Position numbers and translations under genes: made by a program. The notes below the pieces were generated by a model, which was not told the origin of the DNA, did not search any database, and saw only the letters and a program-made list of their open reading frames with translations. Positions 3,241 through 41,460 of a stretch of DNA of 51,556 nucleotides are shown here, one piece after another (positions within the stretch are counted from its first letter, which is position 1; each line of letters opens with the position of its first letter). The stretch spans positions 1 through 51,556 of the forward strand of contig JAISXO010000023.1 in NCBI GenBank assembly GCA_031270475.1, written 5' to 3'. The stretch is from Puniceicoccales bacterium. Its GTDB lineage: Bacteria > Verrucomicrobiota > Verrucomicrobiia > Opitutales > LL51.

Positions 3241-3340
3241 GGCACTCCTCGAGTGCTACTTAACCTACTTAAGCTTCACCATGGGTTGCTCCTCCCTCAT
3301 TTTAGGGGTCTCAACAACCATAAATTACGCATCCATGGCT

Positions 3341-3580
3341 TTAGTCATGGCGGTCCCTAGGAACGGAGTCCTGTTTTAGGCTATTCCAATTGGAAAGTTT
3401 GTTATGGCCTCTTGACGTCAATTCATTATAGAATACTTGGTCATCGTTTTTGGCAACGGTATCATTGCCAACATATGTCTTACTACTTCCAGAGGCGAAA
3501 CTTGCATAGACCCAGGATGCTCTATGTTTTGCGTGGTCTTTTTGCATCCCCAAAATTCTATTCAAAATCCTCTCTCTCAC
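3341..3580 (-). CDS. Hypothetical protein (79 aa, GTG start abutting the stop of the upstream pseudopilin gene)
   Basis: Track ORF. It directly follows the 3581-4024 gene on the same strand. No family recognised. Confidence 0.3.
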   Translation of the reverse strand: MRERILNRILGMQKDHAKHRASWVYASFASGSSKTYVGNDTVAKNDDQVFYNELTSRGHNKLSNWNSLKQDSVPRDRHD

Positions 3581-4683: not shown

Positions 4684-4845
4684 CTGGGGCGCTGCCCCAG
4701 ACCCCGCCAGGGAATACCATTCCCTGGACCGGGATTCCCGGCTCGCCGGGCACAGCCCGACTGATCCGGGAACGGCCGGAGGCCCCGCGGCGAAGGCGCG
4801 GGACCTTCCCCAGTGAGGTTAAAAAGTCGTGATTCCTTTCGGACT
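4684..4845. repeat. GC-rich multi-hairpin mosaic repeat, copy C (between divergent gene starts)
   Basis: Hairpins CTGGGGC-gct-GCCCCAG, CCAGGGAAT-acc-ATTCCCTGG and CCCGG-ctcg-CCGGG, plus a CCCCGCGGCGAAGGCGCGGG module. The track ORFs 4599-4883(-) and 4641-4832(+) are read-through. Confidence 0.75.
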
Positions 4846-11219: not shown

Positions 11220-11416
11220 AATTTTTTATTAAGTTTTTCGATTAATTTTACGAATCATTTTGCCCATTACAGTTGCAGCAATTACTTCATTAATATTCAT
11301 TTGCAAGAATTTTTTATGAAAAATTAAATATATAATGGGATGTTATATAAAAAATTTGCAATCTATTTTAATTTTAATATATTTATTGCGTGGTTTATTG
11401 TGAAAATTCAAAATGG

Positions 11417-12874
11417 ATGGAAAAACGGTCGATGGGGGTTATGATGCACATTTCCTGCTTGCCAAGTCAACAGGGCATCGGATGCTTCAACAAAATAGCT
11501 TTTCGTTTTATCGATTTTTTAACAAATTCAACCGTTGGCTATTGGCAAATTTGCCCCATGAGTCCGACGAGCTACGGCGATTCCCCTTACCAGGGAACCT
11601 CCGCCTTCGCAATTAATCCTTACTTCCTTGACCTAGAACCCTTTGGAATAGATAGCATTCCTATCCATTTATCTGTACAACCCAATCGAGTGCCCTTTGG
11701 TGAAATTTATGAATATTTTAATAATTTATTAAGAAATTTCGGCCCCACTCTGGTTAAAAAATTTGGAAATAGTGTAATTTTTTTTAAATTCAAACAAATT
11801 CATGCCCATTGGCTGAAACCCTATGCACTTTTTACGTCACTGAAATACTTTTTTAGTGGAAAGCCCTGGTTCGAATGGCCCAAAGAATATAAATTTTATA
11901 AAAAAATTGATAGCTCAAAATTACCAGATGATGTCGTCAAATATTGTGAATATTATGAAGTTTTGCAGTATATTTTACATGTTCAGTGGCAGAAAATCAA
12001 ACGCTATGCCAATCAACATCACGTCAAAATTATTGGCGATATCCCGATCTACCCCGGGTTTGATAGCGCAGATGTCTGGAGCGAACCGGAAATTTTTCAG
12101 CTCGATAAACAATTAAATCCTAAAAAACTTGCCGGTGTCCCCCCTGATTATTTTTCCCCGGAAGGCCAACTCTGGGGAAATCCGGTCTACGATTGGGAAT
12201 TTTTACAACAAAACCAATATGACTGGTGGCAGCGACGAATCCAACGCAATGGAGAATTGTTTGATGTCCTTCGCCTTGACCATTTTCGCGGGTTCGACCA
12301 CTTCTGGACTGTCCCCGCTAATGCCGAAAATGCCGTCAACGGAACATGGGAAATGGGACCCGGGAAAAAATTGTTTAAATATCTAAAAAAATATAAGTTT
12401 ATCGCCGAAGATTTGGGCGATATCGACGACAATACCCGCCAATTACAGCAAGATTTACATTTCCCTGGCATGAAAGTTCTGCAATTTGCCTTCTCCGGAG
12501 ACCCTAAAAATATTTATTTGCCACACCATCATGACAAAAATGCCCTCCTATACCTGGGGACTCACGACAATGATACGTTGCGGGGATGGTATGCTAACCT
12601 TAATGAAAGCGCCAAAGATCAAATCCGTCGTTATTTTGGTGTCAGCGATCACGATGTTACCTGGAAATTTTTGACAGAAATTTACCGATCTACCTGTTTT
12701 TTGGGGGTTATTTGTGTTCAAGATTTGCTCACCTTAGATTCCGAAGCGCGATTTAATACGCCCGGGACCCAGAACAATAACTGGCAATGGCGTATGACAG
12801 ATGCTCAATTCACGGAATTGGAAAGGATGGCCCCTACCCTAAAAGCATATGCGTTGCAGTATGATCGATCGTAA
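11417..12874 (+). CDS. malQ: 4-alpha-glucanotransferase (amylomaltase, GH77)
   Basis: GVMMHISCLPS..GIG, DSPYQGTSAFAINPYF, LRLDHFRGF, AEDLGDI and GTHDNDT. The track start at 11390 is GTG. The first ATG is at 11417 and another lies at 11432. Confidence 0.9.
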   Translation: MEKRSMGVMMHISCLPSQQGIGCFNKIAFRFIDFLTNSTVGYWQICPMSPTSYGDSPYQGTSAFAINPYFLDLEPFGIDSIPIHLSVQPNRVPFGEIYEYFNNLLRNFGPTLVKKFGNSVIFFKFKQIHAHWLKPYALFTSLKYFFSGKPWFEWPKEYKFYKKIDSSKLPDDVVKYCEYYEVLQYILHVQWQKIKRYANQHHVKIIGDIPIYPGFDSADVWSEPEIFQLDKQLNPKKLAGVPPDYFSPEGQLWGNPVYDWEFLQQNQYDWWQRRIQRNGELFDVLRLDHFRGFDHFWTVPANAENAVNGTWEMGPGKKLFKYLKKYKFIAEDLGDIDDNTRQLQQDLHFPGMKVLQFAFSGDPKNIYLPHHHDKNALLYLGTHDNDTLRGWYANLNESAKDQIRRYFGVSDHDVTWKFLTEIYRSTCFLGVICVQDLLTLDSEARFNTPGTQNNNWQWRMTDAQFTELERMAPTLKAYALQYDRS

Positions 12875-12974
12875 TTAGTCTGTTTTTCCGTATTATTAAA
12901 CTTGTTTTTGAAATTGTTTACAAATGGAATTTTAATATTTGCTATAAATAGAAAAATAAATATCTTTCAGCCTG

Positions 12975-13397
12975 ATGGATCGAAAAGGATATCTGTTAAT
13001 TGAAATTATTTTTGCACTTGCACTTTTTGGAGTGACTGCGGGTGTCGTGACAAATGGATTTTTAATTGGGCTTCGGTTGCGTGAAAAAGCAGATACCAAT
13101 CGCAATGAAGCAGTTGTCACAACGATGCTGATTAATCGTATTAATCGTATGCCAACTTCTAATAATGCACCTAATGCACCTAATGCACCTACCACTATCA
13201 GAAGCGAGATTGAGATGCATTTTGGCAAAGAAAAATGGCGGCTAAAAATAGCACCGGGAAGCCAATATCTAGTTGGAGGCACTTTTCCTAAATTGTTTGC
13301 TTGTGATATCAAAGTTGCCCAAATCGAGGATTTCAATGGAAATAAAATCGCATCCCCTGAGGAAAAAGAATATCATATTTTCCGTCATATTCCTTAA
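12975..13397 (+). CDS. Prepilin-type N-terminal domain protein (pseudopilin-like)
   Basis: The N-terminus MDRKGYLLIEIIFALALFGVTAG has a G-Y-L-L-I-E prepilin-like signature. It contains a 3 x 9-bp repeat (NAPNAPNAP, 13164-13190). The antisense track ORF 12932-13336 is rejected. Confidence 0.5.
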   Translation: MDRKGYLLIEIIFALALFGVTAGVVTNGFLIGLRLREKADTNRNEAVVTTMLINRINRMPTSNNAPNAPNAPTTIRSEIEMHFGKEKWRLKIAPGSQYLVGGTFPKLFACDIKVAQIEDFNGNKIASPEEKEYHIFRHIP

Positions 13398-13474
13398 TTT
13401 TTATTTTGATCCTTCTATCATCAAGAATAGCTTGAAAATCCTTTGAATTTTTTATTACTCATTGCCGGAGTATT

Positions 13475-15142
13475 ATGATTTCTCTTCTACAAAAAGTTTT
13501 GCAAAAACACCATAAGTGGTTGTTTTCAATTTTATTGGCTGTTGTTACGATCAGCTTTGTTTTCACCGTAGGGTCCTCTCCCGGTATCGGTCGCAATATG
13601 CAGAGACAGGAAAAAAAGATCTTTGGCTACGAGTTATCTTCCCCAAAAAGCGTTAGTCAGTTGATGAAGGAAGTCGAGTTGAACGCCCAGTTGCAACAAA
13701 TCTTTATCGGGACGGAAGCATTGCAAAATTATGCCCTATTTTCCCGACTCGCAATACTGAAACTTGCCAACGATTTTGGCATTCCTAAGTCCAATAAAAA
13801 GTCGCTCAACCGCTTCATCGAAAATTACCCAATTTTCCAAGACGATAATAAAAAATTCGACGCCAATAAATATAATGATTTTCTGGAACGGATGAAGAAG
13901 GATTCTACCCAGTTGGGAGTATTCGAACGGACGATTGCCAATGATTCCAAAATTGCTACAATGGAAAAATTGCTCTTGGGCCAAGGATATGCTTTAGATA
14001 GCCAGGCAAAATCAGAGATTGTACGGGGAAAGACAGAATACTCCTTTTTAACGGCTAAGTTTGACGCTTCGCTCCTAACGAATGAGCCCCAATACGCGGA
14101 AGATGAACTTCAGCAATATTTTGACATGCATCAGGACGCCTACCAAATAGGAGAACAGATTGTCCTAAATTATATCGAATTTCCTTTGGAATCGTTTGCC
14201 GAAAAAATCCCCGAACCGTCACTTTCGGATTTGCAGCAAATTTATAGGGCTCACAAAAATCAATTCCAGAACCTGCTCGAAGGATCCAAAGAGTTGGAAA
14301 CTGCCCTCATCGAGACCTATCAACATAATATGATCGATCGCCTAGCCATGGAAGCCGCTACCCAGTTTGCCTATGATCTTTATGAAAAAAATATTATCCA
14401 CGGTTCTGAACAATTTAAACAACTCATCGAAGAGAGAAAACTAAAAGTATCTCCACTGGATCCCGTAACATTGGGACAATTTTCTGAAAACGAACACTTT
14501 TCCGATGAATCCTTAGCCCAGGCAAGTAAGTTAAATGGGGACCGCTATTTTTCGGATCCCGTATGGGCGAAGAACGGTAATCCGTGTCTCCTATTATATC
14601 AGGACCTCATTCCATCGATTTATCCGCCGCTGGACATCGTTCGCGAACAAGTTATTCGAGATTTTATGGTGTGGAAAAAAGAGGAAATCTTCTCACAACA
14701 AATTGATGAAATTCAAAAAACATTGGCCGAAATAGATCACCTATCTCCGGAAGTATTTGCAAAAATTGTCACCAACAAAAGGGGTACGTTTGCAAAGCTT
14801 GATAGAAAGACTCTCAATGAAGGCATCGCTCCCCAGGAACAGGAAGTACTATTATCCCTTCGCGTTGGAACTACCTCCAAGGCAATTTTCACGAAAAAAA
14901 TGGAAGCAGAAATTATATTTCTCACCAAAAGAGAAATCCCTTCAAATATCGATTCAGCCAATTTGGAGCAAATGGTAACGATTTTGGAGAAGAAAAATAA
15001 GGAAGGTTTCAACGATTACATCCTCGAAATGATTCTCGATGAAATAGGAGTTACGGAAAGACGCGAAGAGACTATGCAGCATTTCCAAATGATGGCATCT
15101 CTCATTTATATGCAACGCCATCGGAACGAATTTAAATTTTAA
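13475..15142 (+). CDS. PpiD-like membrane-anchored periplasmic chaperone (SurA-N-like region; no recognisable parvulin domain)
   Basis: N-terminal anchor HHKWLFSILLAVVTISFVFTVG. The repeated motif pattern AEDELQQYFDMHQDAYQIGEQIVLNYIEF and SLSDLQQIYRAHKNQFQ resembles the E. coli PpiD architecture. Confidence 0.5.
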   Translation: MISLLQKVLQKHHKWLFSILLAVVTISFVFTVGSSPGIGRNMQRQEKKIFGYELSSPKSVSQLMKEVELNAQLQQIFIGTEALQNYALFSRLAILKLANDFGIPKSNKKSLNRFIENYPIFQDDNKKFDANKYNDFLERMKKDSTQLGVFERTIANDSKIATMEKLLLGQGYALDSQAKSEIVRGKTEYSFLTAKFDASLLTNEPQYAEDELQQYFDMHQDAYQIGEQIVLNYIEFPLESFAEKIPEPSLSDLQQIYRAHKNQFQNLLEGSKELETALIETYQHNMIDRLAMEAATQFAYDLYEKNIIHGSEQFKQLIEERKLKVSPLDPVTLGQFSENEHFSDESLAQASKLNGDRYFSDPVWAKNGNPCLLLYQDLIPSIYPPLDIVREQVIRDFMVWKKEEIFSQQIDEIQKTLAEIDHLSPEVFAKIVTNKRGTFAKLDRKTLNEGIAPQEQEVLLSLRVGTTSKAIFTKKMEAEIIFLTKREIPSNIDSANLEQMVTILEKKNKEGFNDYILEMILDEIGVTERREETMQHFQMMASLIYMQRHRNEFKF

Positions 15143-17404: not shown

Positions 17405-17582
17405 GCAAGGAAATTGCTGTGGATCCCTACTTCACACTTCGCAATGAGTCGTAAAATTCCTTGACCTTCTTCTGCGAGCCAGCGACGGCGCAAAGAGCTG
17501 GGCGAAAAAATTCTTTTCCAAGATTCCGGATCTAGGGGATGGATCTCTTGGGGAGGATTCTAAGGACGCGCAGTCCTTAAAT
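17405..17582 (-). repeat. Degenerate, partly AT-decayed copy of the GC-rich mosaic repeat (copy H, inverted)
   Basis: The reverse complement reads TTAAGGACTGCGCGTCCTTAGAATCCTCCCCAAGAGATCCATCCCCTAGATCC...CGCCCAGCTCTTTGCGCCGTCGCTGGCTCGCAGAAGAAGGTCAAGG. This is colinear with the first and last modules of the copy at 25650-25935. Confidence 0.55.
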
Positions 17583-19382: not shown

Positions 19383-20416
19383 TAAACGCCTTTGAGTTTC
19401 ATAGTAAGGAATTTTTATGGTTATTGCTTCTTTTACCAGTTATTGCCTACGTTGGTAAGCGCTGCAAAAGGCAAGCCACGCTTTCTTTTCCCCACACGGA
19501 ATTTTTGAAAAAAGCGACGGATTTTCATCGTCCACAATCCCAGCGCTTTTTAAATTTTCTACGCTTTTCAGCCCTTACCCTATTGATTTTTGCTCTGGCG
19601 CGTCCCCAGCTTGTCCATCGTTTTACGGAATCCAATTCCAGCGGTGTCGATATTATGCTCGCGGTAGACATTTCCTCTTCGATGATGGGGCTCGATTTCC
19701 AGGAGAGAAATGAACGAAAGTTGATCACGCGTCTAGATATCGCCAAACAGGTGACCGATGAATTCATTCAAAATCGCCCCAATGATCGCATCGGCATGTG
19801 TGCTTTTGCAGGAGATGCTTACTTGATCAGTCCCGTTACGATGAATCACGATTGGCTGGAAAGTAATTTAAAACGCTTACATGTTGGCCTGGTAGAAGAT
19901 GGGACGGCGATTGGGAATGCCATCGCCATGTGTGCGAATCGTCTCAAAAATTCGGAGTCTAAGACGAAACTTATTGTCTTGCTAACCGATGGTGGTAATA
20001 CGGCAGGTAATATAGCTCCCCTAATTGCTACGGAAATGGCAGCGGCCTTGAATATTAAGATTTACACCATCGGTATTGGTAAAAAAGGTGTTATTCTATT
20101 TGCATGTCCCGATGAGCAGGGGAATATCGCTATGGATCCTTTTGGCCAACCGGTTGTCATTCAAGCGCAGGCCGATCTCGACGAAACTTTACTCGAAGCC
20201 ATTGCCCAAAAGACGGATGGACAATTTTTCCGTGCGGAAAATAAAAAGCAATTGAGCGATATTTATACGAAGATTGATCAATTGGAAAAAACCGATATAA
20301 AAGTTAAACAATTTGCCACCGCGGAGGACTTTTTCATCTGGCTCATCGGATGCGCCCTTCTACTCCTACTCTTGGAGTGTTTTTTACGTTATTTAAAATT
20401 CCAAAAGATACCATGA
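19379..20416 (+). CDS. batA: VWA domain protein BatA
   Basis: N-terminal TM, MIDAS motif DIMLAVDISSSM, ...LLTDGGNTAG, C-terminal TM. Confidence 0.8.
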   Translation: MINAFEFHSKEFLWLLLLLPVIAYVGKRCKRQATLSFPHTEFLKKATDFHRPQSQRFLNFLRFSALTLLIFALARPQLVHRFTESNSSGVDIMLAVDISSSMMGLDFQERNERKLITRLDIAKQVTDEFIQNRPNDRIGMCAFAGDAYLISPVTMNHDWLESNLKRLHVGLVEDGTAIGNAIAMCANRLKNSESKTKLIVLLTDGGNTAGNIAPLIATEMAAALNIKIYTIGIGKKGVILFACPDEQGNIAMDPFGQPVVIQAQADLDETLLEAIAQKTDGQFFRAENKKQLSDIYTKIDQLEKTDIKVKQFATAEDFFIWLIGCALLLLLLECFLRYLKFQKIP

Positions 20417-22413
20417 AATTCGGAAATATGTTATTTTTGTTTCTGTTGCCCCTGTGGGTTGCTCTGGTGCTATTCATAATCGGAGGTGGACAAAAACGTC
20501 GATCGTGTCGGCTCAAACAAATGGTTGCCCAACGGCTCTTTCCTCTGTTACTTTCGAACTATAGTGCCGGGAGACAAAATCTAAAAAATTTGCTCTTCCT
20601 ATGCGCAATCGCACTCATTGGATTCGCCCTAGCCGCGCCAAAATGGGGCCATAGGCAGGAAGAGCGCTATGTGAAAGGGGTCGATTTATTGATTGCGGTA
20701 GATGTTTCCAAAAGTATGCTCGCGGAAGATATAAAACCCAATCGCCTTGAACGTACGAAATTGGCCATTTTAGATCTCATTAAATCTTTTGTGGGGCATC
20801 GTGCCGGCCTCATCGCCTTTGCTGGGGATTCTTTTTTGCAATGTCCCCTTACCCTCGATCATAACGCCTTTATCCAGAGTTTGAATGCCATCGATACGGA
20901 TACCATTCCTCTGCCGGGGACGGCCATCAATGGAGCGATTGAGTTAGCCGAAAAGGTCTACGATCAAACACAAAATCAGAAATTACTCTTTCTCTTTTCC
21001 GACGGTGAAGAATTGGCCGACGGCGCCATCGAAGGTGCTAAACGGGCAAAGGAACAAAATGTCTGCATTTATACGATCGGCATCGGATCAACGGAAGGCG
21101 TTACGATTCCCATTACGGACTATCGAACGGGAAAAGTAAGTCCCCTATGCGATAGAAAAGGACAAATCGTAAAAACTTCCCTCGACGAAAAGACGCTCCA
21201 AGAAATTGCTGAAATAACCGGTGGCCAATACTACCACCTATCGCCCGCTGCCCTATCGCATTTGCAAAGGGATATTCTCACGCATTTTCCATTTCTCAAA
21301 GAAAATTCCAAAGGAAATAAGTATATCGAAAAGGTTTATCAGGAACGCTACCAGCTATTTTTACTCCTAGGATTTCTTTTACTGCTACTGGAAATGCTTC
21401 TGAGTAATTATAAAAAATCGGAAAAATATTCAATTTCAATTTACTATCAACTTTCGTCACTCATTTTTATTTTTCTTTTTTCATTGAGTAGCCTATCAGC
21501 AAAAGAGAGTAAGGGAGAAACCTGCTATAAAAATGGAGAATTTGAAAAAGCATTGGAATTTTATGATCAACAGTTGGCCAAAAAACCGGACGATCAGGAG
21601 CTATTCTACAATAAAGGGACGACCTCTCTTTCCCTCAAACGATACGAAGAAGCAATCGATTGTCTCAAGAAATCAATTCCCAATGCGCCCCTAGCGTTAC
21701 AAAAAAAAGCATTTTATAACCTGGGGAATACGTTTTTCGAGCAAGGACAAAGCTTACCTGAATCGCAAAAAACATTGGAAAAATGGAAGGAAAGTTTACG
21801 TTATTTTCAATCAGCCGTAGACCTAGATGGACAGTTCGAGGAAGCTAAAAAAAATGCAAAATACGTTGAAGAGCAGATTAAAAAGCTAGAAGAACAGCAA
21901 AAATCCCAAAATCAACAGGAATCCGACAAGCAGAAAGATCAGCAAAACCAAGATCAACAGCAGGATCAAAACGATCAACAGAAAAACTCAGACCAACAGA
22001 AATCCGACGACCAAAAAAATCGAGATGATCAACAGAAACCGGATCATCAAAACCAAGATCAACAGCAGGATCAAAACGACCAACAGAAAAACTCAGATCA
22101 ACAGAAATCCGATGACCAGAAAAATCAAGATGATCAACAGAAACCGGATCATCAAAACCAAGATCAACGGCAGGATCAAAACGACCAACAGAAAACTCAG
22201 ACCAACAGAAATCCGATGACCAGAAAAATCGAGATGAGCGGCAGAAAAATTCAGACCCAAAAAAAACCGATAAACTACAGAAACCTCAACCCCAACGGCA
22301 ATCGGATGCCCCTGAAAAGCCGGAAAATTCAGAAAATCAACACCCCGAACAACCTTCCGATAAACGCAACGAATCGCAAAGTAAAAATAATGATAAAAAT
22401 CAACCCAAAATGA
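20413..22413 (+). CDS. batB: Fused BatB (VWA) - BatC (TPR) protein, as-read frame; the C-terminus is out of frame after a 1-nt homopolymer difference near 22192-22195
   Basis: The start at 20413 overlaps the batA stop (ATGA). MIDAS motif DLLIAVDVSKSM, two TM segments, TPR repeats (GEFEKALEFYDQQLAKKPDD...), then a Q/D/K-rich 35-aa tandem repeat. The tail after 22195 (TQTNRNPMTRKIEM...) is the repeat read in the wrong frame. Confidence 0.75.
   Translation: MKFGNMLFLFLLPLWVALVLFIIGGGQKRRSCRLKQMVAQRLFPLLLSNYSAGRQNLKNLLFLCAIALIGFALAAPKWGHRQEERYVKGVDLLIAVDVSKSMLAEDIKPNRLERTKLAILDLIKSFVGHRAGLIAFAGDSFLQCPLTLDHNAFIQSLNAIDTDTIPLPGTAINGAIELAEKVYDQTQNQKLLFLFSDGEELADGAIEGAKRAKEQNVCIYTIGIGSTEGVTIPITDYRTGKVSPLCDRKGQIVKTSLDEKTLQEIAEITGGQYYHLSPAALSHLQRDILTHFPFLKENSKGNKYIEKVYQERYQLFLLLGFLLLLLEMLLSNYKKSEKYSISIYYQLSSLIFIFLFSLSSLSAKESKGETCYKNGEFEKALEFYDQQLAKKPDDQELFYNKGTTSLSLKRYEEAIDCLKKSIPNAPLALQKKAFYNLGNTFFEQGQSLPESQKTLEKWKESLRYFQSAVDLDGQFEEAKKNAKYVEEQIKKLEEQQKSQNQQESDKQKDQQNQDQQQDQNDQQKNSDQQKSDDQKNRDDQQKPDHQNQDQQQDQNDQQKNSDQQKSDDQKNQDDQQKPDHQNQDQRQDQNDQQKTQTNRNPMTRKIEMSGRKIQTQKKPINYRNLNPNGNRMPLKSRKIQKINTPNNLPINATNRKVKIMIKINPK
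21943..22250 (+). repeat. Intragenic 105-bp tandem repeat, about 2.9 copies (QNQDQQQDQNDQQKNSDQQKSDDQKNxDDQQKPDH)
   Basis: Repeat units begin at 21943, 22048 and 22153, with exactly 105-bp spacing. They are near-identical at the DNA level. Confidence 0.9.
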
Positions 22414-24968: not shown

Positions 24969-25670
24969 GTGCTGAAAGCTTTTTACCCAGGACCTTTGGA
25001 AGAGAGATCGCTTGTCCATTTAGATCGGGAGGAAACGCACCATCTCTTTCACGTTTTGCGAGCGACTAGAGGCGAAAAAGTCATTCTTCTCAATGGTCAC
25101 GGCTACTATGCCGAAGGGCATATCCATGAAACACAGGGAATTGTAATCGATGGCGTTCATTTTGCAGAGAGCAGTAAAATTACATTGTGTCCTGCCCTTT
25201 TAAAAAATAAAGCCATGGACTTTCTCATTCGTGAGGCGACGGCGATCGGTGTTGCAAAAATTATTCCCATTTATACCCAAAATTCAGAGGTCAAAATTCA
25301 AAACGTCGCTGAAAAACAAATGCATTGGAATCACATTGCCCGTGAGGCTTGTAAACAATCGGGAAATCCGTACTTGCCATTTATTGAAATGCCTAGAAAA
25401 TTAAAAGACTTAGCATGTTCCATGCCAGTATTTGTCTCTGCATTGCGGGGAAATCCAAAAAATATTTTTCATTACCAGTCGGAAATTAAAAACAATCCCA
25501 TTGCCATTTTAGTTGGTCCCGAGGGTGATTTTTCAGAACGGGAATATCAGTATTTCGAGCAAAGTAATTTTCATTTTATCCACCTCGGGCGATATGTCCT
25601 TCGCGCAGAAACTGCTGCGCTTTACCTTTTGAGTGTCATTGATTGTTGTCTAAGGACTGCGCATCCCTAG
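24969..25670 (+). CDS. rsmE: 16S rRNA (uracil1498-N3)-methyltransferase
   Basis: HHLFHVLRATRGEKVILLNGHG, ...ILVGPEGDFSEREY..., LGRYVLRAETAALYLLSV. The last 7 codons and the TAG stop lie inside repeat copy D. Confidence 0.85.
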   Translation: MLKAFYPGPLEERSLVHLDREETHHLFHVLRATRGEKVILLNGHGYYAEGHIHETQGIVIDGVHFAESSKITLCPALLKNKAMDFLIREATAIGVAKIIPIYTQNSEVKIQNVAEKQMHWNHIAREACKQSGNPYLPFIEMPRKLKDLACSMPVFVSALRGNPKNIFHYQSEIKNNPIAILVGPEGDFSEREYQYFEQSNFHFIHLGRYVLRAETAALYLLSVIDCCLRTAHP

Positions 25671-25935
25671 GATTCTCGCCATAGAAATCCATCTCCTTTA
25701 CCGAAAAAATTTATCTTTGCCCGCCCCCGGGCTTGCCCGGGGCGGGTAAAAAGGCCCTGCCCTCGTCGCTTCGCGACGAGGGCAAGACGACTTCGTCGTC
25801 CGATCCTTACTAGGATCGGGCCTTTTTAATCCCCGCGGCGAAGCCGCGGGGGCAAATTTTCTGCGGCCCAGCTAGCACAAATTGTGCTTGGCTGGGCCGC
25901 AGAAGTGAGGTCAAGGGGTCTGATTCCTTATGGGA
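25650..25935 (+). repeat. GC-rich multi-hairpin mosaic repeat, copy D (longest)
   Basis: Modules in order: CTAAGGACTGCGCATCCCTAGGATTC; CCCGCCCCGGG-ctt-GCCCGGGGCGGG; CCTCGTCGC-ttc-GCGACGAGG; GACGAC-ttc-GTCGTC; CCGATCC-ttacta-GGATCGG + TTTTT; CCCCGCGGC-gaa-GCCGCGGGG; a CTGCGGCCCAGC...GCTGGGCCGCAG long hairpin; and the terminal TGATTCCTTATGGGA. Confidence 0.85.
25800..25827 (+). terminator. Intrinsic-terminator-like hairpin plus T5 inside repeat D (downstream of rsmE)
   Basis: CCGATCC-ttacta-GGATCGG, then GCC and TTTTT. Confidence 0.5.
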
Positions 25936-25996
25936 TGTGAGCAAATCTCCACAGCAAGTAGCTTGCTTACGAAATAAAAAATACTATGACCAGCCT

Positions 25997-26790: not shown

Positions 26791-28965
26791 ATGGATTTGC
26801 CAGATCGGGTTATTCGCGAACGTTTTATCCGCGAGCACGACCGCAGTTTTTCGGTTGTTGCTCCGGCGGGGACTGGCAAGACGACGGCCATAACTCGGCG
26901 CATTGTTGACATTGTTGCGCGCCAATCGATTCCTTTGGAGAAGCTGATTGTGGTGACCTATACCAATAAGGCGGCGGGGGAATTGCAGCAGCGGACACTA
27001 CTGGAGGTTCAAAAAATAGATGGAAATTTAAATTATTATAACAAAATTTTCTTTGGAACGATCCATGCTTTTGCCGACCAATTACTGAGGAAATACGGGC
27101 ATTTTATTGATATTAATCCGGATTTTGAAGTTGAAAAAGACGGGCATTTGTTGTGGGATGATTTTTTACAAAATCTCAAAGGGGGAAGTTTCATTCCGCC
27201 CATCATCGGTAAATTCGTTCCACGGGAAGCCTTATACTCGCTTGTTAGGGATCATTATCATCAAGAAATTGCGAATTTTACAACTAACTCAAAAACTTCC
27301 TTATCAAGCTGTCTTGGTCCGTTGCTCGAATATCCGGCTAAAAGTAATATGAATATCGTTCACTTTCAGGAAAATCTTCGCTATTGGTTACAAAATCAGG
27401 AGTTACCTTTTCCTAAAATCGGCACAAATTCCAAGGAATTTATTGCATTGTACGAATATTTGTTGGGGCCTTCCGAGGATGAATGTTCTCAAATTTGTGG
27501 GGATTACTTCAATGATTTAGTTCAAAAATTTGAGCAATTTCGTTTTCGCGAGGGCCGTTTTACATTTTACGATTTAATAAAATTTTCTCTCTATTTAGTA
27601 CGTCACGAAAATGCTAAAAAAATATTATGTGATTTTTTTGTTATACTCGATGAAGCCCAGGATACGGATCCGCAACAATTTGAGTTACTCCTTGGAATTG
27701 CGCAGCCACCGTCGATTATGAATGTAGATTTTTTTCACAACCCTCCCCTTCCTGGCCATTTTTGCATGGTTGGTGATCCGCAACAGTCGATTTATGCCGA
27801 TCGTGCAGACGTTGCATTTTATCAAAAAATTCATGAAACATTTATTGCAAACGGTACTTTAGAAGCGCTTCATTTTTCGGCAACTTTGCGTTTCGGGGAA
27901 AATATTATTCATCAAATTAACCAAATTTTTCCCAACATTTTAAATGGAAAAAATGGTCAGGTTTCTTTTTCGCCGCTCACTTCTGCCATCAATCAATTCT
28001 TTGGGGTAGAGAATACATTTTTCGGTCATGTTTCCGGGTGGTTATGCCTAGATACTGTGCCATTTGAAGATGAATTGTCCTTCCTTTGTCATTTTTTTCG
28101 TAAAAAAAATCCTCAAGATTTTAACCTTTCTTCATGGAGCGAAATGGCGATCCTTTGTCCGCGAAAAAATTGGTTACACGAAATTCAAAATGCATTTTTT
28201 CTGATGGCGGACATGCCCAAATTACAGCTCCATTCTGCTACGCAAACCTATGGCGAATTTCCTGAATTTTCTTGGTTTTATGCCATAATAACGGTGCTAT
28301 TTAGTCCGCAAAATCGATTCGAATTTTCTGGAATTTTACATGAAATTTTCGGATTTCCCGATGCAATCATTGCGCGCCATTTCCGGTCGGGTGCTGTGGA
28401 GGAAGTTGTTGCCATTGAAGATTTTTTTGCGGAAATTAGACTAAAATGCGTGACATTATCCCCATTACAAATACTCAATTTACTTTTTGACAAATTTGAT
28501 TTGATTGCACGTATTATTAGCATTCATGGAAATTTTTGTGATAAAATTCATAAGGAATTACAATTAATTGCCGCAGAATCCATTTGTAACGCAGATTTTC
28601 TATTCCGATTGAAAAAAAAATCTCAGGAAATTTACCAATCGGAATGGATTGAACGGGATGCTATTCAATTATACACCTTTCACAAAGCGAAGGGACTCGA
28701 ATGGCCAATTGTTATTATTCCATTTATTAATCGCAAGCAAATGCCCGTTGTACATACTTTCCCTTGCATAGTAAATCAAAAAATTGCCATTAATAAACGG
28801 CAATATGAAGAATGGTCAGACCATTGCGCTTATGTAAATAATTTACAACGCTTGCTTTACGTTGCTTTGACACGGCAGAAACGACAAGCTATTTTTATTG
28901 ACGATGGTCGGGAAATGTGTCCGAGTTCTATTGCCGCTCTCTTGGGCAAATTTGAATCAAACTAA
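26791..28965 (+). CDS. UvrD/PcrA/AddA-like superfamily 1 helicase (no nuclease domain seen)
   Basis: Walker A VVAPAGTGKTTAI, IVVTYTNKAAGEL, ILDEAQDTDPQQFELL, VGDPQQSIY, TFHKAKGLEWPIVIIP and LLYVALTRQKR. Confidence 0.8.
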   Translation: MDLPDRVIRERFIREHDRSFSVVAPAGTGKTTAITRRIVDIVARQSIPLEKLIVVTYTNKAAGELQQRTLLEVQKIDGNLNYYNKIFFGTIHAFADQLLRKYGHFIDINPDFEVEKDGHLLWDDFLQNLKGGSFIPPIIGKFVPREALYSLVRDHYHQEIANFTTNSKTSLSSCLGPLLEYPAKSNMNIVHFQENLRYWLQNQELPFPKIGTNSKEFIALYEYLLGPSEDECSQICGDYFNDLVQKFEQFRFREGRFTFYDLIKFSLYLVRHENAKKILCDFFVILDEAQDTDPQQFELLLGIAQPPSIMNVDFFHNPPLPGHFCMVGDPQQSIYADRADVAFYQKIHETFIANGTLEALHFSATLRFGENIIHQINQIFPNILNGKNGQVSFSPLTSAINQFFGVENTFFGHVSGWLCLDTVPFEDELSFLCHFFRKKNPQDFNLSSWSEMAILCPRKNWLHEIQNAFFLMADMPKLQLHSATQTYGEFPEFSWFYAIITVLFSPQNRFEFSGILHEIFGFPDAIIARHFRSGAVEEVVAIEDFFAEIRLKCVTLSPLQILNLLFDKFDLIARIISIHGNFCDKIHKELQLIAAESICNADFLFRLKKKSQEIYQSEWIERDAIQLYTFHKAKGLEWPIVIIPFINRKQMPVVHTFPCIVNQKIAINKRQYEEWSDHCAYVNNLQRLLYVALTRQKRQAIFIDDGREMCPSSIAALLGKFESN

Positions 28966-29201
28966 AGGCTGCACGCCCTTTAGAATTTCCGCCAAAGGAT
29001 CCATCCTCTGGACCGGTATTTCAGACCAGTCTATGTACAAAGGCCCGGAGCTATTTTAAAAAGGCCCGCCATCGGCGCGAAGCGCCGAGGGCAAGGCGAC
29101 TTGTCGCCCGATCCCAGTAGGGATCGGGCCTTTTTAATTCCCCGCGGCTTCGCCGCGGGGGGCTTGTGAAGAGATCAATGAATTCATGACTCTTTATGGG
29201 A
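28962..29201 (+). repeat. GC-rich multi-hairpin mosaic repeat, copy E (same orientation as D)
   Basis: CTAAAGGCTGCACGCCCTTTAGAATTTCCGCC..., then 29056-29139 colinear with 25746-25830 (TAAAAAGGCCC..GGGCAAGGCGACTTGTCGCCCGATCCCagtaGGGATCGGGCCTTTTTAAT), then CCCCGCGGC-ttc-GCCGCGGGG and the terminal TGACTCTTTATGGGA. Confidence 0.85.
29106..29135 (+). terminator. Intrinsic terminator-like hairpin inside repeat E (downstream of the helicase gene)
   Basis: GCCCGATCCC-agta-GGGATCGGGC (10-bp stem), then C and TTTTT. Confidence 0.6.
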
Positions 29202-31017: not shown

Positions 31018-31154
31018 CACTTTTTTATTATCAAAAATATCCAACAAAGCAAGTTTTACTTGCGTTTAGCGGAAAAATTTTGGAGAAATATTAAAATAGT
31101 CCCATTTCCTACGAGGAATTGCAAATTTCTTGGCCTATTAACGCCTAACTATGT

Positions 31155-31225
31155 GCCTCATCCTCGTCGCGAAGCGACGAGGATGAGGCGAAAAAAGCCC
31201 CGCGGCTTCGCCCGCGGGGTTCGGG
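31155..31225. repeat. GC-rich hairpin repeat, copy F (two-hairpin short form)
   Basis: GCCTCATCCTCGTCGC-gaa-GCGACGAGGATGAGGC (16-bp stem, 31155-31189) plus CCCCGCGG-cttcgc-CCGCGGGG (31198-31219). Confidence 0.8.
31189..31219 (-). terminator. Intrinsic terminator of rpsA
   Basis: The minus strand reads CCCCGCGG-gcgaag-CCGCGGGG followed by CTTTTTTCG, 33 nt after the rpsA stop. Confidence 0.7.
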
Positions 31226-33060: not shown

Positions 33061-33159
33061 GACGGAGAAATTTTTTTGCCAAGCTGGGCCTGAATTTTTA
33101 CATGCCGCTCGCTCCCACCCTCTACTCTCCAGCCTTGAAAAAAAATTGGTGTTTGTCAA
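33061..33159 (-). repeat. TTGACA-headed conserved module, copy 1 (about 130 nt upstream of the rpsA ATG)
   Basis: The reverse complement reads TTGACAAACACCAATTTTTTTTCAAGGCTGGAGAGTAGAGGGTGGGAGCGAGCGGCATGTAAAAATTCAGGCCCAGC. This aligns almost without gaps (a single-base indel) with 41183-41262. Confidence 0.6.
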
Positions 33160-33283
33160 ATTATTTCTTAAAATTATCGAAAAAACAAACAAACTCAAAA
33201 ATTTTTCTTGACTTTGTTTTGACATTGTACTAGGACACAAACTCTTGGTTATTTCCGTAAATAGTCGTTTCAAAATTCCGCTA

Positions 33284-35659: not shown

Positions 35660-38359
35660 ATGTCCAGTCAAAGCAAAATATATGAATTTGGTCGGAAAAC
35701 GGATGGCGATGCGGCAATGCGTCCTTTACTCGGCGGTAAGGGGGCGAATTTAGCCGAAATGGCACGTATTGGATTACCGGTTCCTCCAGGATTTACGATT
35801 ACGACGGAAGTTTGCGCCGAATTTAAGACAAATGGCGAAAGGTTGCCCGTCTACCTCTTCGATCAGGTCAAAGCGGCGATCAAGAATGTCGAAGCTCAGC
35901 AGGGAAAAACATTTGGCGATCTTGAAGATCCGCTATTATTTTCCGTACGTTCTGGAGCGCGCGAATCGATGCCCGGTATGATGGATACGATTCTCAATCT
36001 CGGACTTAACGATCAAAGTGTTCAAGGCTTTGCAAAACATACGAATAATCCGCGCTTTGCCTACGATTGTTATCGCCGATTTATCCAGATGTACGGCGAT
36101 GTGGTCATGGGTGTCCAGGCTACTGATGACCATGAGGAGGAGCCCTTCGATGCCGTATTGGGAGAACTCAAGCGGGAGGTCGGCGCTCAAAACGATGTGG
36201 ATCTGACTGCGGAGCAACTCCAGGAATTAATCCGACGCTACAAGGATTTGATCAAAAAATTCGTCGGAACAGAATTCCCTCAAGATGTCTATGTCCAGCT
36301 AAAAGGCGCGATCGGCGCTGTTTTCAAGTCCTGGAATAACGAGCGAGCGGTTATCTATCGCCAGAAATATAATATTCCGTCGGAATGGGGAACGGCGGTA
36401 AATGTGCAATCGATGGTATTCGGAAACATGGGTAATAATTGTGCGACCGGTGTCGCTTTTACGCGTAATCCCGCCAATGGTATACACGAATTTTATGGCG
36501 AATATCTGATTAATGCCCAGGGTGAAGACGTCGTCGCCGGCATTCGTACGCCCCAACCCATCGCTGCCCTCAAAAATGATATGCCCAAAGTTTTTGATCA
36601 ATTGGTATCCGTCTGCAAAACATTGGAGGATCATTTCCGCGATATGCAGGATTTTGAATTCACCATTGAACAGGATAAGCTCTACATGTTACAGACGCGT
36701 AACGGAAAACGGACAGGACTAGCGGCGGTACGCATTGCGGTAGAGATGGTCGACGAAAAGCGCATTTCCCGGGAAGAAGCGGTTAAGCGTATTCCCGCGG
36801 ACTCAATTTCTTCTCTACTTGTCCCCGTATTCGATGAGAAGGAGAAAAAGAATTTGAAAAAATTAGCCATCGGATTACCGGCGGGACCAGGCGCAGCCTG
36901 CGGAAAGGTATATTTTTCTGCGAAAAAAGCGGAAGAAATCCATGCCAAAGGCGAAAAAGTCATCCTCTGCCGCATCGAGACTTCACCGGAAGATATCCGC
37001 GGCATGTTGACTTCGGAGGGCATCCTGACGAGCCGCGGCGGTGTCAGTTCCCATGCGGCGTTGGTAGCGAGACAAATGGGTAAAGTTTGCGTCTGCGGAG
37101 CAGGAGCGCTACACATCGACTACGCAACAAAAACTATTCAGGTCGATGGAACAACCATAAAAGAGGGGGATTACCTTTCCATCGATGGGACAACGGGAGA
37201 AGTTTTTTCCGGAAAAGTAGCAACCGTTCCCTCCGAAGTCAACCGCGTACTAGCCGGTGATATGAAGGAGGAAAATAGCGATACGTATCGCCTATTTGCT
37301 ACGGTAATGGAGTGGGCTGATGGATTTCGTAAACTCGGTATCCGTACCAATGCGGATACTCCAAAACAAGCCAAACAGGCCTTTCAATTGGGAGCTGAAG
37401 GAATTGGTTTATGCCGTACGGAACATATGTTCTTCGAAGAAGATCGCATCGATTTCATGCGCGAAATGATTCTCGCGACGACAACGGAAAATCGTATCGA
37501 CGCTTTGGACCATTTGAAGCCGCTCCAACGCGGGGATTTTGAAGGACTTTTCCGCGAAATGAAGGGATTCCCTGTCACTATCCGCCTGCTAGATCCACCA
37601 TTACATGAATTTCTTCCAAACTCGGACGATGCCTTGGATGCTTTATCTAAAAAATTTAATATTCCTGTGGAACATATAAAAGCGCGCGTACAAGCACTGC
37701 ATGAACAAAATCCGATGCTCGGCCACCGCGGTTGTCGGTTGGGAATGACTTATCCGGAGATTACAACTATGCAGGCGACAGCGATTTTTGAAGCCGTTGC
37801 TCAAGTCGTTTCGGAGGGAATCGACGTTAAAGTTGAAGTAATGGTACCACTCGTTGGATTCGAAGGGGAATTGGAAAATCAGGTCGCGTTGATCCGAAAA
37901 GCTGCCAGTGAGGCAATGGAAATAACTGGTAAAAATTTTAGTTACGCGGTGGGAACGATGTTGGAACTCCCAAGGGCAGCCTTGGTTGCAGACAAAATCG
38001 CAGAAACAGCGGAGTTTTTTAGCTTCGGAACAAATGATCTAACACAGACAACGCTCGGTATGAGCCGGGACGATTCGGGATCATTTTTGCCGGAATATAT
38101 CGCCCAAGAAGTTGTTAAACGCAATCCGTTTGCATCCATCGATGTGGAAGGCGTTGGGCAACTTATGAAAATTGGCGTCGATAAGGCGCGTACGACAAAA
38201 CTCGGTGTGAAAATTGGAATTTGCGGAGAACATGGCGGCGATCCCGATTCCATAAAGTTTTGTCACAAACTAAATTTGAATTATGTGAGTTGTGCGCCCA
38301 ATCGCATTCCCATTGCCAAAATCGCCGCCGCTCAAGCCGCGTTGGAGAAAAATAACTAG
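35660..38359 (+). CDS. ppdK: Pyruvate, phosphate dikinase
   Basis: 899 aa: [10 protein letters not shown], the phospho-His region [27 protein letters not shown] and the C-terminal PEP-utilising domain [11 protein letters not shown]. Confidence 0.95.
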
Positions 38360-38445
38360 GGGTTGTCGCTCCCTTAGAATCCTCCGCCAGGAGAGCCCTC
38401 TCCTGGATCGAATCTTTTTCCTCCGCGGCGAAGCCGCGGGGGCTG
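38357..38445. repeat. GC-rich hairpin mosaic repeat, copy G (short composite)
   Basis: CCCTTAGAATCCTCCGCCAGGAGAGCCCTCTCCTGGATCG plus CCGCGGC-gaa-GCCGCGG. It starts at the ppdK stop codon and lies between convergent genes. Confidence 0.8.
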
Positions 38446-39333: not shown

Positions 39334-41166
39334 GTGATAGAGGTCCAGAATTTGAGTTATTCGATTGGGGGGCGAGTTTTACTCGACGATCTTTCTTTTT
39401 ACATCCCGACCAACACAACCGTCGGCATCGTAGGGGCTAACGGTTGCGGAAAGAGCACGCTCTTTCGGCTGATTTTGGGTGATTTAACCTCGGATCAAGG
39501 GACGATCGTACGTCCAAATGGAGCGAAAGTCGTAACCGTTCGTCAGGAAGTTAGTGACGATTCCGCAAGATTAATCGATTTCGTCTTGCAGGCCGATGAC
39601 GATCTAACGACTTTGCGCCGCGCTTCCGAGGAGGAAAACGATGGGATGAAATTGGCGGAAATTTTTGAAAAAATCGAGGCAATCGACGGATTTAATGCCG
39701 AAATTCGTGCCGCAACCATCCTTTCCGGACTAGGATTTTTAAATGAAGATTTACAAAAGCCGCTGCGTGATTTTTCGGGTGGTTGGCAAATTCGTGCTGC
39801 CCTTGCCTCAACCCTATTTGCGCCATCTGACATTCTATTGCTGGACGAACCGAGTAATCATCTCGATTTTGAGACATCGCTCTGGCTGAAAAATTATTTA
39901 CAGAAAATTCATGAACAGAAAACGATTCTCATGATCAGCCATGAACGCGATTTTTTAAATACGTTGTGCGACAAAATTCTCCATCTTCCCTCGGGCAATT
40001 TGTATTCGGGGAACTACGACATTTTCGTTGAGACGCGGGCCAATCAGCAGCAGGCGCTTGCTCGGCGGATCGAAAAACAAGAGGTGACGCGCAAACATTT
40101 ACAATCTTTTGTCGATCGCTTTCGCTATAAGGCTTCGAAGGCGAAACAGGCACAGAGTCGAATAAAGATGCTCGAAAGGATGGAAAATTTGCCGAAACTG
40201 GACCGCGATCATACGGTTAGTTTTTCATTTCCTAATCCGAGGCCGATCGATCGTCTGTTAATTAATGTTAAAAAAGGTGTGGCGGGTTACGGCGAACACG
40301 TCGTTTTGAAGGATCTTAATCTCAAAATTGATGCGGGCGATCGCATCGCTCTATTGGGGGCAAATGGTAATGGAAAATCGACCTTGGTAAAGGTTCTTTC
40401 GGATCGATTGGCGCTTTTTGAGGGGAGTATTGAATTTGCTAAAAAGTTGCAAACTGCCTATTTTTCGCAGCAACTGACGGATGAATTAACGGTTGAGAAG
40501 ACGCCATTTGAGATTCTATCGGCGATTTTGACCGATCGCAACGAAACGCAGGTACGGGCACAATTGGCGCGATTTGGGCTCATGCAGCAGAAGTCTGACA
40601 CGCGGGTAAAAAATCTTTCTGGGGGCGAAAAAACAAGACTGCTATTGGCTATTATTACCCGTCAGGCACCGCATATTTTGATTCTCGATGAACCCACGAA
40701 TCACCTCGATATCGATGCGAAAGACGCGCTCATCGATGCGCTCAACGAATACGAGGGGGCTGTCGTCCTTGTTTCGCACGATTTTTACTTTATCGAGTCG
40801 GTTTGCGACCAGCTTTTACTGGTAAAAGATGGTCATTGTCAGCCTTTTTCAGGAGATTTGGAAGATTATGTCGAAGCGGTTCTCGCCGAAAAACGGGAGA
40901 TGAAAAAATCGGAAAATGCAGTAAAAAATATGGAAAGAAATCACTTGTCATTGCAGGACGAAAAAAAGAAGAAGCAGCTTTTGAAGCAGCTCGAAGAATT
41001 AGGGCGACAAATTGAAGAACTAAGCCAGAAAAAACAGCAACTGGAAGTTAAAATAAATTTATCCTACGATGAAAATATTTTCAGAAATTTCACATCTGTT
41101 GCGCAAGAATTGGCACAGAAGGAGCTGGAATGGTTACAATTATCGGAAATGCTGGAGGCGATGTGA
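39334..41166 (+). CDS. ABC-F family ATPase (Uup/YheS-like, tandem ABC domains plus a C-terminal coiled coil)
   Basis: Two Walker A motifs (GANGCGKST, GANGNGKST), two signature motifs (FSGGWQIR, LSGGEKTR) and an inter-domain linker with RFRYKASKAKQAQSRIK. The likely GTG start at 39334 gives VIEVQNLSYSIGG. The track TTG start is at 39310. Confidence 0.88.
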   Translation: MIEVQNLSYSIGGRVLLDDLSFYIPTNTTVGIVGANGCGKSTLFRLILGDLTSDQGTIVRPNGAKVVTVRQEVSDDSARLIDFVLQADDDLTTLRRASEEENDGMKLAEIFEKIEAIDGFNAEIRAATILSGLGFLNEDLQKPLRDFSGGWQIRAALASTLFAPSDILLLDEPSNHLDFETSLWLKNYLQKIHEQKTILMISHERDFLNTLCDKILHLPSGNLYSGNYDIFVETRANQQQALARRIEKQEVTRKHLQSFVDRFRYKASKAKQAQSRIKMLERMENLPKLDRDHTVSFSFPNPRPIDRLLINVKKGVAGYGEHVVLKDLNLKIDAGDRIALLGANGNGKSTLVKVLSDRLALFEGSIEFAKKLQTAYFSQQLTDELTVEKTPFEILSAILTDRNETQVRAQLARFGLMQQKSDTRVKNLSGGEKTRLLLAIITRQAPHILILDEPTNHLDIDAKDALIDALNEYEGAVVLVSHDFYFIESVCDQLLLVKDGHCQPFSGDLEDYVEAVLAEKREMKKSENAVKNMERNHLSLQDEKKKKQLLKQLEELGRQIEELSQKKQQLEVKINLSYDENIFRNFTSVAQELAQKELEWLQLSEMLEAM

Positions 41167-41182
41167 ATTATTTTAAAATTAC

Positions 41183-41262
41183 TTGACAGCTGTCGATTTC
41201 TTTTCAAAGCTGGAGAGTAGAGGGTGGGAACGAGCGACACGTAAAAAATCTCAACCCAGCGT
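41183..41262 (+). repeat. TTGACA-headed conserved module, copy 2
   Basis: TTGACAGCTGTCGATTTCTTTTCAAAGCTGGAGAGTAGAGGGTGGGAACGAGCGACACGTAAAAAATCTCAACCCAGC. Confidence 0.6.
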
Positions 41263-41392
41263 AAATGCCTTACTTTTACTTTTTACGTTTTTATGCTTTG
41301 TTGCTTTGTTTAAACATAGAAAAATTATCGCAATTTCATAAATTCTAAAAAATATTTTTGAAAAATGTTTTCTGAAAACGTTTAAAAAAAAC

Positions 41393-41460
41393 TTGACAAA
41401 CCTAATTTTTCTTCCAAGGCTGGAGAATAGAGGATAGGAGCAAAGGGTGCGTTTAAATTG
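41393..41460 (+). repeat. TTGACA-headed conserved module, copy 3 (more diverged)
   Basis: TTGACAAACCTAATTTTTCTTCCAAGGCTGGAGAATAGAGGATAGGAGCAAAGGGTGCG. Confidence 0.5.

Follow-up and report, generated by a model that had tools for sequence, protein, structure and literature searches.

Pneumococcal BOX elements have the layout boxA-boxB(n)-boxC, in which conserved 5' and 3' modules with partly inverted-repeat ends enclose variable internal modules, and we know of no transposase for them. Correia elements of Neisseria have defined 26-bp inverted repeats and a TA target duplication, the neisserial intergenic mosaic elements (NIMEs) are mosaics flanked by dRS3, and the GC clusters of yeast mitochondria are mobile GC-rich palindromic islands that lie mostly between genes, with optional in-frame copies in var1. 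Repetitive extragenic palindromes (REPs), whose superfamilies are defined by a GTAG or CGTC head, are found 3' of open reading frames (ORFs), can donate stop codons and occur inside genes, including dnaE of Rickettsia conorii; another verrucomicrobium, Opitutus terrae, is rich in them (PMC3733652). Here we analyse eight GC-rich islands in a 51,556-nucleotide stretch of DNA from a Puniceicoccales bacterium (GCA_031270475.1, contig JAISXO010000023.1), referred to below as the window (51.5 kb, 41.7% GC overall). With a probability of roughly 0.65, these islands belong to a lineage-specific family of non-coding, non-autonomous mosaic repeats of ~90-350 bp that is confined to one subclade of Puniceicoccales from lower-termite guts.

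Judged by homologues of its UvrD-like helicase, DnaE and PheS, the window belongs with metagenome-assembled genomes (MAGs) of uncultured Puniceicoccales (Verrucomicrobiota), and lower-termite gut metagenomes are the origin of the related series of MAG labels (e.g., Gsp477 from Glyptotermes and Kf353 from Kalotermes). The closest relative found was Cc175_bin33 (GCA_031259665.1; Cc175 in the following), a single MAG represented by the three loci L004, L101 and L102, which shares 86% (PheS) and 89% (DnaE N-terminus) protein identity with the window and 76-84% DNA identity across genes. Farther relatives are L103 (PheS 84%), L001 and L003 (helicase 69-72%) and L005, which is Gsp477_bin23 (helicase 50%). 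In the ~150 kb of these six genomes, the window included, nhmmer detected 22 distinct copies of the 5' module of the elements; none was detected in ~1.3 Mb from other Verrucomicrobiota (78 loci, L006-L083). Long perfect GC-rich hairpins with a stem of at least 15 numbered 15 in the subclade loci versus 2 in the other loci.

The elements share with REPs and bacterial interspersed mosaic elements (BIMEs) the short GC-rich palindromic units, the mosaic build in either orientation, the position between convergent or co-directional genes near 3' ends, stop codons that a terminus may supply, and occasional intragenic copies. They differ in that no GTAG or CGTC head is conserved (a TGTC variant occurs in a minority of copies only), the stem and tail are unlike the text description of the CGTC class, no sequence similarity was detected, no gene for a REP-associated tyrosine transposase (RAYT) was found in the available sequence, and the copied unit is a composite of 200-350 bp between two different double-hairpin modules. 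BOX elements are similar in their modular layout, partly inverted ends, strong predicted structure and intergenic position, a likeness by description; however, they belong to another phylum with other sequences, and the internal modules described here are heterogeneous hairpins rather than one repeated boxB unit. With the Correia elements and NIMEs the family has in common a size like that of miniature inverted-repeat transposable elements (MITEs), terminal inverted repeats, dense occupancy of intergenic regions, putative effects on transcript ends and mosaics at sites of rearrangement (described in part in PMC3733652), but no target duplication was seen here and the termini are themselves double hairpins. 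Rickettsia palindromic elements (RPEs) are likewise palindromic repeats of a reduced, AT-leaning, host-associated genome that can lie in-frame inside essential genes, although here there is one intragenic case, whose far end lies beyond the window, most copies are intergenic, and there is no sequence relationship. Yeast GC clusters are comparable in that they are GC-rich palindromic islands of an AT-rich genome, lie mainly between genes and include an in-frame copy, but they are organellar and eukaryotic, consist of much shorter single units and have no terminal double hairpins. Subterminal hairpins are common to our elements and to the palindrome-associated transposable elements (PATEs) derived from IS200/IS605, which insert 3' of a fixed tetra- or pentanucleotide, but no conserved short motif precedes the elements of the window and its relatives.

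Thus, the islands constitute a new, clade-restricted family of a known kind (REP/BIME/MITE) that falls in no named family: they behave like REPs without a GTAG or CGTC head, and neither Rfam nor plasmid or viral sequences provided a match. The elements reached the gathering threshold of no Rfam family (island E of the window and an element of L005 scored at best 20-32 bits versus the 49-241 needed), the patterns of the 5' and 3' modules had 0 matches in viral contigs, island E and a complete Cc175 element had no BLAST match in plasmid records, and a full-text literature search with motif strings retrieved only unrelated primer sequences. The MITE-type characters are a size within 50-500 bp (~205 bp for the complete Cc175 element), the lack of an ORF and terminal inverted repeats; the REP-type character is the recurrence of hairpin units of 20-40 nt in eight islands within 51.5 kb, all but one of them intergenic. 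A preliminary description of this DNA had proposed a dispersed, modular hairpin repeat family of the REP/BIME/Correia/RPE kind, in a sequence family that it did not recognise. Both statements hold, since the modules recur in the independent assemblies of five related genomes and no described family was matched.

Islands and element anatomy

The eight islands were all found where the preliminary description had placed them, with a GC content of 0.49-0.68 versus 0.18-0.32 in eight other intergenic spacers of the window. All perfect GC-rich hairpins of the window (stem of at least 7, GC of at least 0.6) are located within them. In a BLAST comparison of the islands with the entire window, matches were obtained only among the islands, save for two short AT-rich chance matches, which agrees with the claim that the islands are assembled from common modules. 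A hairpin of the form CCCGCGGC-GAA-GCCGCGGG, termed module iii, is present at 5 loci of the window versus 0.01 expected, and the core of module i, which corresponds to the 5' double hairpin described below, has 7 matches in the window, 5 of them inside islands, versus 1.4 expected. The block 25747-25852 in island E is colinear with 29057-29161 in island F (83% identity over 108 nt), and an inverted partial copy lies at 2993-3038, as had been noted for the module-ii block and its inverted counterpart near 2995. The islands make up ~2.6% of the window, and the elements ~8% of the 24.5-kb Cc175 contig, as estimated from measured island lengths, so that the family would account for an appreciable part of such genomes.

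The architecture of a complete element was read from better-preserved copies in the relatives, such as the element of ~205 bp located 3' of the Cc175 GH77 gene. It opens with a 5' double hairpin, in which hairpin 1 (CTAAGGGC-N5-GCCCTTAG), the linker AATCCnCG and hairpin 2 (CCAGGAGnC-N3-GnCTCCTGG) are followed by ACC. The middle part is variable; besides an AT-rich stretch, which may be missing, it holds one or more near-perfect hairpins (9-22 bp), mostly closed by triloops; among 76 perfect GC-rich hairpins the triloop is GAA or TTC in 15 and AAT or ATT in 10. Modules ii and iii are the recurring internal hairpin types, and internal modules are found in both orientations. The element closes with a 3' double hairpin, consisting of GGT-CAAGGAGTC-N3-GACTCCTTG, then CGGGGT or CGGGA, and then GTGGGGC-N3-GCCCCAC or GTCCAGAGGGC-GGA-GCCCTCTGG. 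The 5' module (hairpin 1-AATCCCCG-hairpin 2-ACC) approximates the reverse complement of the 3' module (hairpin 3-ACCCCG/TCCCG-hairpin 4-ACC), the two being imperfect inverted copies. Since the reverse-complemented 3' module has the layout of the 5' module, the ends of the element behave as imperfect inverted repeats of ~50 nt.

Two modules of the preliminary description need revision. Its module i was recovered near 2909, 17580 (reverse complement), 25650, 28962 and 38368, but the piece near 90 that had been assigned to it is a 3'-type double hairpin. The supposed terminal module iv exists at 25921 and 29187; however, it is really the decayed 3' terminal hairpin, with the canonical form GGTCAAGGAGTC-N3-GACTCCTTG, and the two sites named are not the only ones, as it is also present at 4811-4845 and, reverse-complemented, at 17405-17470.

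In an alignment of 23 copies of the 5' module, 91% of the cells are paired and 26 cells carry double changes, versus 8.3 in shuffles (0 of 500 shuffles were as high), and sliding the hairpin partners abolishes the pairing. The high share of paired cells and the excess of compensatory changes over the shuffles indicate that the hairpin structure has been maintained. The bases 5' of hairpin 1 are variable (TGTC three times, TGCC four times, TAAC three times, AGTC, ACTC, CCCC and others). Out of 17 pairs, 2-6 positions are unpaired in the window copies and 0-2 in the Cc175 copies, the changes being mostly transitions, which suggests decay of the terminal modules in the window genome; the family may therefore no longer be mobile there. 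Such fresh copies in Cc175 and L005, next to decaying ones in the window, in genomes that differ in their degree of divergence, offer a natural system in which the birth, homogenisation, loss and possible terminator co-option of REP-like mosaics can be followed.

The islands of the window are composed as follows:

Island A, 1-140, minus strand: in dnaE, in-frame after ...GENHFPVF; 3'-type double hairpin at 83-126; the window begins within the element.
Island B, 2891-3047, plus strand: decayed 5' double-hairpin module at 2893-2947; hairpin at 2955-2989; inverted module-ii hairpin at 2996-3019; GGCAAC-GAA-GTTGCC; T-run.
Island C, 4684-4845, plus strand: inverted 3'-type module at 4684-4733; internal hairpins including module iii at 4783-4802; decayed 3' terminal hairpin at 4811-4845.
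Island D, 17405-17582, minus strand: decayed complete copy 3' of pheS; 5' module at 17582-17526; remnant of the 3' hairpin at ~17470-17405.
Island E, 25648-25953, plus strand: focal element, near-complete; 5' module at 25650-25702; spacer; hairpin at 25720-25746; module ii at 25747-25830; module iii at 25831-25852; long hairpin at 25860-25903; decayed 3' double hairpin at 25907-25953.
Island F, 28960-29201, plus strand: near-complete; 5' module at 28960-29017; module ii at 29056-29139; module iii at 29140-29161; decayed 3' hairpin at 29165-29201.
Island G, 31150-31225, no strand assigned: only two internal-type hairpins, one at 31155-31189 with a 16-bp stem, the other module-iii-like at 31196-31221.
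Island H, 38353-38445, plus strand: short; 5' module at 38355-38411; module iii at 38420-38442.

Element E probably extends to about 25953, and its module ii is a clamp of an A-run and a T-run around three hairpins. Positions 87-126 of island A match 4726-4686 of island C in BLAST, and islands B and C correspond to the left and right ends of a single compact element in Cc175 (L101 7770-8012). The gene contexts given in the preliminary description were confirmed: E lies 3' of an RsmE-like gene and G 3' of rpsA; F, H and D lie between convergent genes; B is downstream of pseudopilin-like genes, C is beside a divergent start, and A is inside dnaE with the frame open. Fold strength, expressed as the z-score of the minimum free energy against dinucleotide shuffles, amounts to -6.8 (A), -3.6 (B), -3.1 (C), -0.7 (D), -10.5 (E), -5.6 (F), -8.0 (G) and -2.1 (H), and the eight control spacers scatter near 0 (-2.3 to +1.5). 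Hairpin structure was thus found as claimed in seven of the eight islands (-2.1 to -10.5), and the value of island D fits its earlier designation as degenerate.

Gene ends and the dnaE insertion

In most cases the distance between hairpin 1 and the native stop of the co-oriented upstream gene is 0-15 nt, and hairpin 1 often holds the stop codon, as seen for the helicase, pyruvate phosphate dikinase (PPDK) and RsmE-like genes of the window, pheS of L103, RsmE and GH77 of Cc175, and PPDK of L005. In the window the RsmE-like gene ends at 25670, with its last codons and stop inside hairpin 1 of E, the stop codon TAA of the helicase gene (28963-28965) lies inside the 5' module of F, and the stop codon TAG of the PPDK gene (38357-38359) lies inside that of H. 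At the Cc175 GH77 gene the TAA of hairpin 1 stands exactly at the native stop position. Three proteins carry element-encoded tails, namely the RsmE-like protein (ending in ...CLRTAHP in the window; 22 residues in L103), the helicase of L003 (ending in ...CLRATRP) and IspF of Cc175 (16 residues). Copies are also found between divergent gene starts.

The dnaE insertions of the window and Cc175 begin after one and the same residue, their first ~20 residues are homologous, and none of the other verrucomicrobial DnaE sequences that were aligned has such an insertion. The elements thereby reshape gene ends through new stop codons and C-terminal tails and provide an insertion in a replicative polymerase gene, and knowledge of the family helps to avoid miscalled ORF ends and spurious small ORFs in the islands.

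A subset of the hairpins takes the form of intrinsic terminators, with a hairpin and a T-run 3' of a gene: 25798-25821 (+), 25788-25754 (-), 29106-29129 (+) and 31219-31198 (-), the last being a hairpin with T6 located 3' of rpsA in island G. In E both strands of module ii qualify as a terminator, and in F the plus strand does; many element hairpins have no T-run. In a terminator scan, 19 sites were found in 24-32 kb versus 9.6 expected.

Distribution among relatives and competing explanations

The further copies expected outside the window are present in the related genomes, and a comparison of these genomes, as suggested in the preliminary description, revealed differences in presence and absence. 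The 24.5-kb contig of Cc175 carries 8 elements, 4 of which have only an ordinary AT-rich spacer at the corresponding site of the window (3' of GH77, 3' of MurC/B, the divergent MurC/B-PriA spacer and the convergent PriA/IspF spacer). At the 3' end of pheS an element is present in the window, Cc175 and L103 but not in L001 or L003, and L001 also lacks one 3' of RsmE. All five genomes examined (window, L001, L003, L004 and L005) have an equally oriented element at the helicase 3' end, and the PPDK 3' end carries one in the window (H) and in L005, both with the unusual variant CTAGGGG. Three Cc175 copies are colinear over ~190-220 bp with local alignment scores of 101-148, and E and F in the window score 72, whereas orthologous pairs from the window and Cc175 score only 21-44. 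Copies thus resemble each other more closely within a genome than between orthologous sites, and entire composites have been duplicated in single genomes. The content of the elements has therefore been turned over or homogenised per genome, with many positions persisting.

The elements would have spread at the DNA level with the help of a trans-acting enzyme for which the terminal double hairpins are the recognition sites. Dispersed copies would exchange internal modules by recombination or gene conversion, and the elements would persist where they are least harmful, at the 3' ends of genes, where the modules made of A-run, hairpin and T-run have probably been co-opted as bidirectional intrinsic terminators or 3'-end protectors.

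Several observations weigh against this explanation. Neither a transposase nor another candidate mobilising gene was detected when 30 ORFs of the window were compared with Pfam, and no transposase is on record in the precomputed gene annotations of L001, L003 and L101-L103. No target-site duplication was seen at three sites filled in Cc175 and empty in the window or at the pheS site, where diverged AT-rich flanks blur the ends, no conserved target motif emerged from the comparison of filled and empty sites, and divergence of the flanking spacers prevents an exact placement of the element termini. The helicase, PPDK and RsmE 3' sites are filled in deeply diverged genomes, a pattern equally compatible with ongoing mobility and with old insertions that were retained and may be functional. 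In the dnaE insertion the open frame covers 47 codons of the window sequence and 84 of the Cc175 sequence, and both sequences end inside the insertion. The terminator role is one that we infer from sequence features. Finally, A.C mismatches outnumber G.T mismatches on the strand of the element (22 versus 14), and without an excess of G.T over A.C there is no positive sign of selection at the RNA level.

This mismatch balance bears also on the proposal that structured RNAs (small or cis-regulatory) are encoded by the islands, which would then not be DNA repeats. The strong fold z-scores and the prevailing orientation of the 5' module with the upstream gene would suit such RNAs, but no Rfam gathering score was reached (the best partial scores, 20-32 bits, stand against 49-241), internal modules occur in either orientation, A.C exceeds G.T, and the internal content is not conserved between orthologous copies, so that we regard this proposal as very improbable.

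The shared sites could alternatively reflect ancient terminator or 3'-untranslated-region structures that were inherited vertically without any transposition, their similarity arising from ectopic recombination or gene conversion together with selection for stable hairpins. In line with this, genomes whose helicases are only 50-73% identical share the helicase, PPDK and RsmE 3' sites, paralogous copies are closer than orthologous ones, terminator-like A- and T-runs are present, and compensatory changes keep the stems paired. However, gene conversion alone cannot seed a naive site, and 4 of the 8 Cc175 sites are plain AT-rich sequence in the window; moreover, copies lie between divergent starts and in-frame in dnaE, where a terminator would be harmful, and the window copies decay by transitions. 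We therefore consider purely vertical inheritance unlikely.

As to the enzyme, the mobile repeat family could be specified further by assuming that its elements, in the manner of REPs, REPINs or PATEs, are moved in single-stranded form by a Y1 HUH transposase (RAYT or IS200/IS605 TnpA type), which would recognise the subterminal hairpins 2 (CCAGGAGnC) and 4 (CAAGGAGTC). Similar hairpins near both ends of the element and the lack of a visible target duplication accord with such an enzyme, as do the C-GAA-G or C-TTC-G triloops in 15 of the 76 perfect GC-rich hairpins, which we take to be a very stable GNA-triloop context in DNA. The location of known REPs 3' of ORFs and inside genes, their provision of stop codons and the REP-rich genome of Opitutus terrae (PMC3733652) point in the same direction. 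Yet no GTAG or CGTC head is conserved and the four bases before hairpin 1 vary, no tetranucleotide is conserved 5' of the elements, the window yielded no Y1 transposase, and the copied unit is a composite of at least 200 bp with inverted-repeat-like ends that would be equally apt for a DDE transposase. No PF01797-type (RAYT) domain was detected in the window ORFs, although RAYTs are usually single-copy, so that ~150 kb cannot exclude one. A parent insertion sequence was detected neither in scans of viral contigs nor in a metagenome scan with the hairpin-1 pattern. A Y1 enzyme is thus conceivable but doubtful.

For the mobile repeat family as such, rearrangements around the elements are also of importance, since the elements mark places of gene-order change. 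Synteny breaks at elements were observed at the helicase 3' end (window versus Cc175, L001 and L005), at the RsmE and pheS 3' ends in L103 and at the B/C site. In the window ~1.7 kb with the pseudopilin-like genes separates B from C; in Cc175 the two are united in a single compact element. It appears that clusters of genes shift from one site marked by an element to another.

Two observations concern the pilin-related genes themselves. The pseudopilin-like genes (window 3109-4665) are missing at the same site of Cc175 (L101 7760-8033), and in L103 a gene with a weak match to the prepilin N-methylation domain (N_methyl) within 11299-14132 adjoins the pheS element. A function of the islands as DNA-uptake sequences, considered because a ComEC-family gene and the pseudopilin-like genes are present, was set aside, as the stems are too variable for a fixed uptake word.

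Contigs of Cc175_bin33 start or stop inside elements (L102 1-222, L004 1-200 and L101 10880-11109). Although this tendency of the relatives' contigs might indicate assembly chimeras or contaminating GC-rich reads, contig breaks are expected at genuine repeats, the same modules stand at orthologous gene ends in independent assemblies from JGI, NCBI and Logan, and reading frames extend into the elements; an artefactual origin of the islands, against which the preliminary description had cautioned, was therefore rejected. Instead, a repeat family in which contigs end explains the fragmented assemblies of these reduced, uncultured genomes of the symbiont type.

Look-alike modules and other features of the window

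The metagenome scan with the hairpin-1 pattern retrieved 17 mostly high-GC contigs, none of which comes from the termite clade. Several of them have CCAGGGGC-N3-GCCCCTGG-ACCCCG directly before CTAAGGGCC-N4-GGCCCTTAG-GATCC, which goes beyond the requirements of the pattern, and look-alike contigs carry GGGGCGCTGCCCC-AnACCCCG, which also opens island C of the window, and the full module i with a covarying second hairpin. The look-alike contigs come from unrelated bacteria of high GC content, and in them the near-identical units and linkers are part of mosaic triloop-hairpin arrays. The contigs concerned are:

L085, L090, L092, L094, L099 and L100: Rhodospirillales bacterium 69-11.
L087, L089, L093, L095, L096 and L098: other look-alike contigs.

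The look-alikes may reflect a broader superfamily, horizontal spread or convergence. A cross-phylum superfamily of the form hairpin-ACCCCG-hairpin-ACC/GATCC with a conserved putative enzyme, within which the termite-clade element would have become aimed at gene ends carrying stop codons, can be proposed only tentatively and is rather unlikely. If true, the element would represent a mobile cassette of a stop codon plus a bidirectional terminator that seeds rearrangements and in-frame protein insertions.

Further candidates were considered and dismissed. A tRNA-like origin of the string TTAGAATCC...CCA was rejected because pairing of a T-arm is impossible, and ARAGORN predicted no tRNA. Integron attC sites, CRISPR repeats, remnants of group II introns and TnpB omega-RNA were rejected on anatomy, since there are no R/L core sites, no regular spacing and no Rfam match, and housekeeping genes lie upstream.

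Beyond the islands, the window contains the following features:

47696-47794, plus strand: RNA of the signal recognition particle (bacterial small type; 58.4 bits), the only Rfam family above its gathering score in the window.
33080-33180, plus strand; 41165-41260, minus strand; 41355-41470, minus strand: copies of another repeat family (~95 nt), unrelated to the islands and located in AT-rich spacers.
21937-22304: tandem repeats of ~105 nt (two 94% identical copies plus diverged ones) in a VWA/TPR (BatB-like) gene at 20350-22413.
50200-51556: GC-richer, purine-rich sequence with interleaved families of direct repeats (D3, D6, D9 and D11), running off the end of the window.

The conserved core of the second repeat family, CCCACCCTCTACTCTCCAGCCTTG, is followed by an A-run and TTGTCAA, and the family may represent small RNA genes or repeats associated with promoters. 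The tandem-repeat stretch at 21937-22304 displays a very high AT skew, and the region 50200-51556 is probably a repetitive protein-coding gene.

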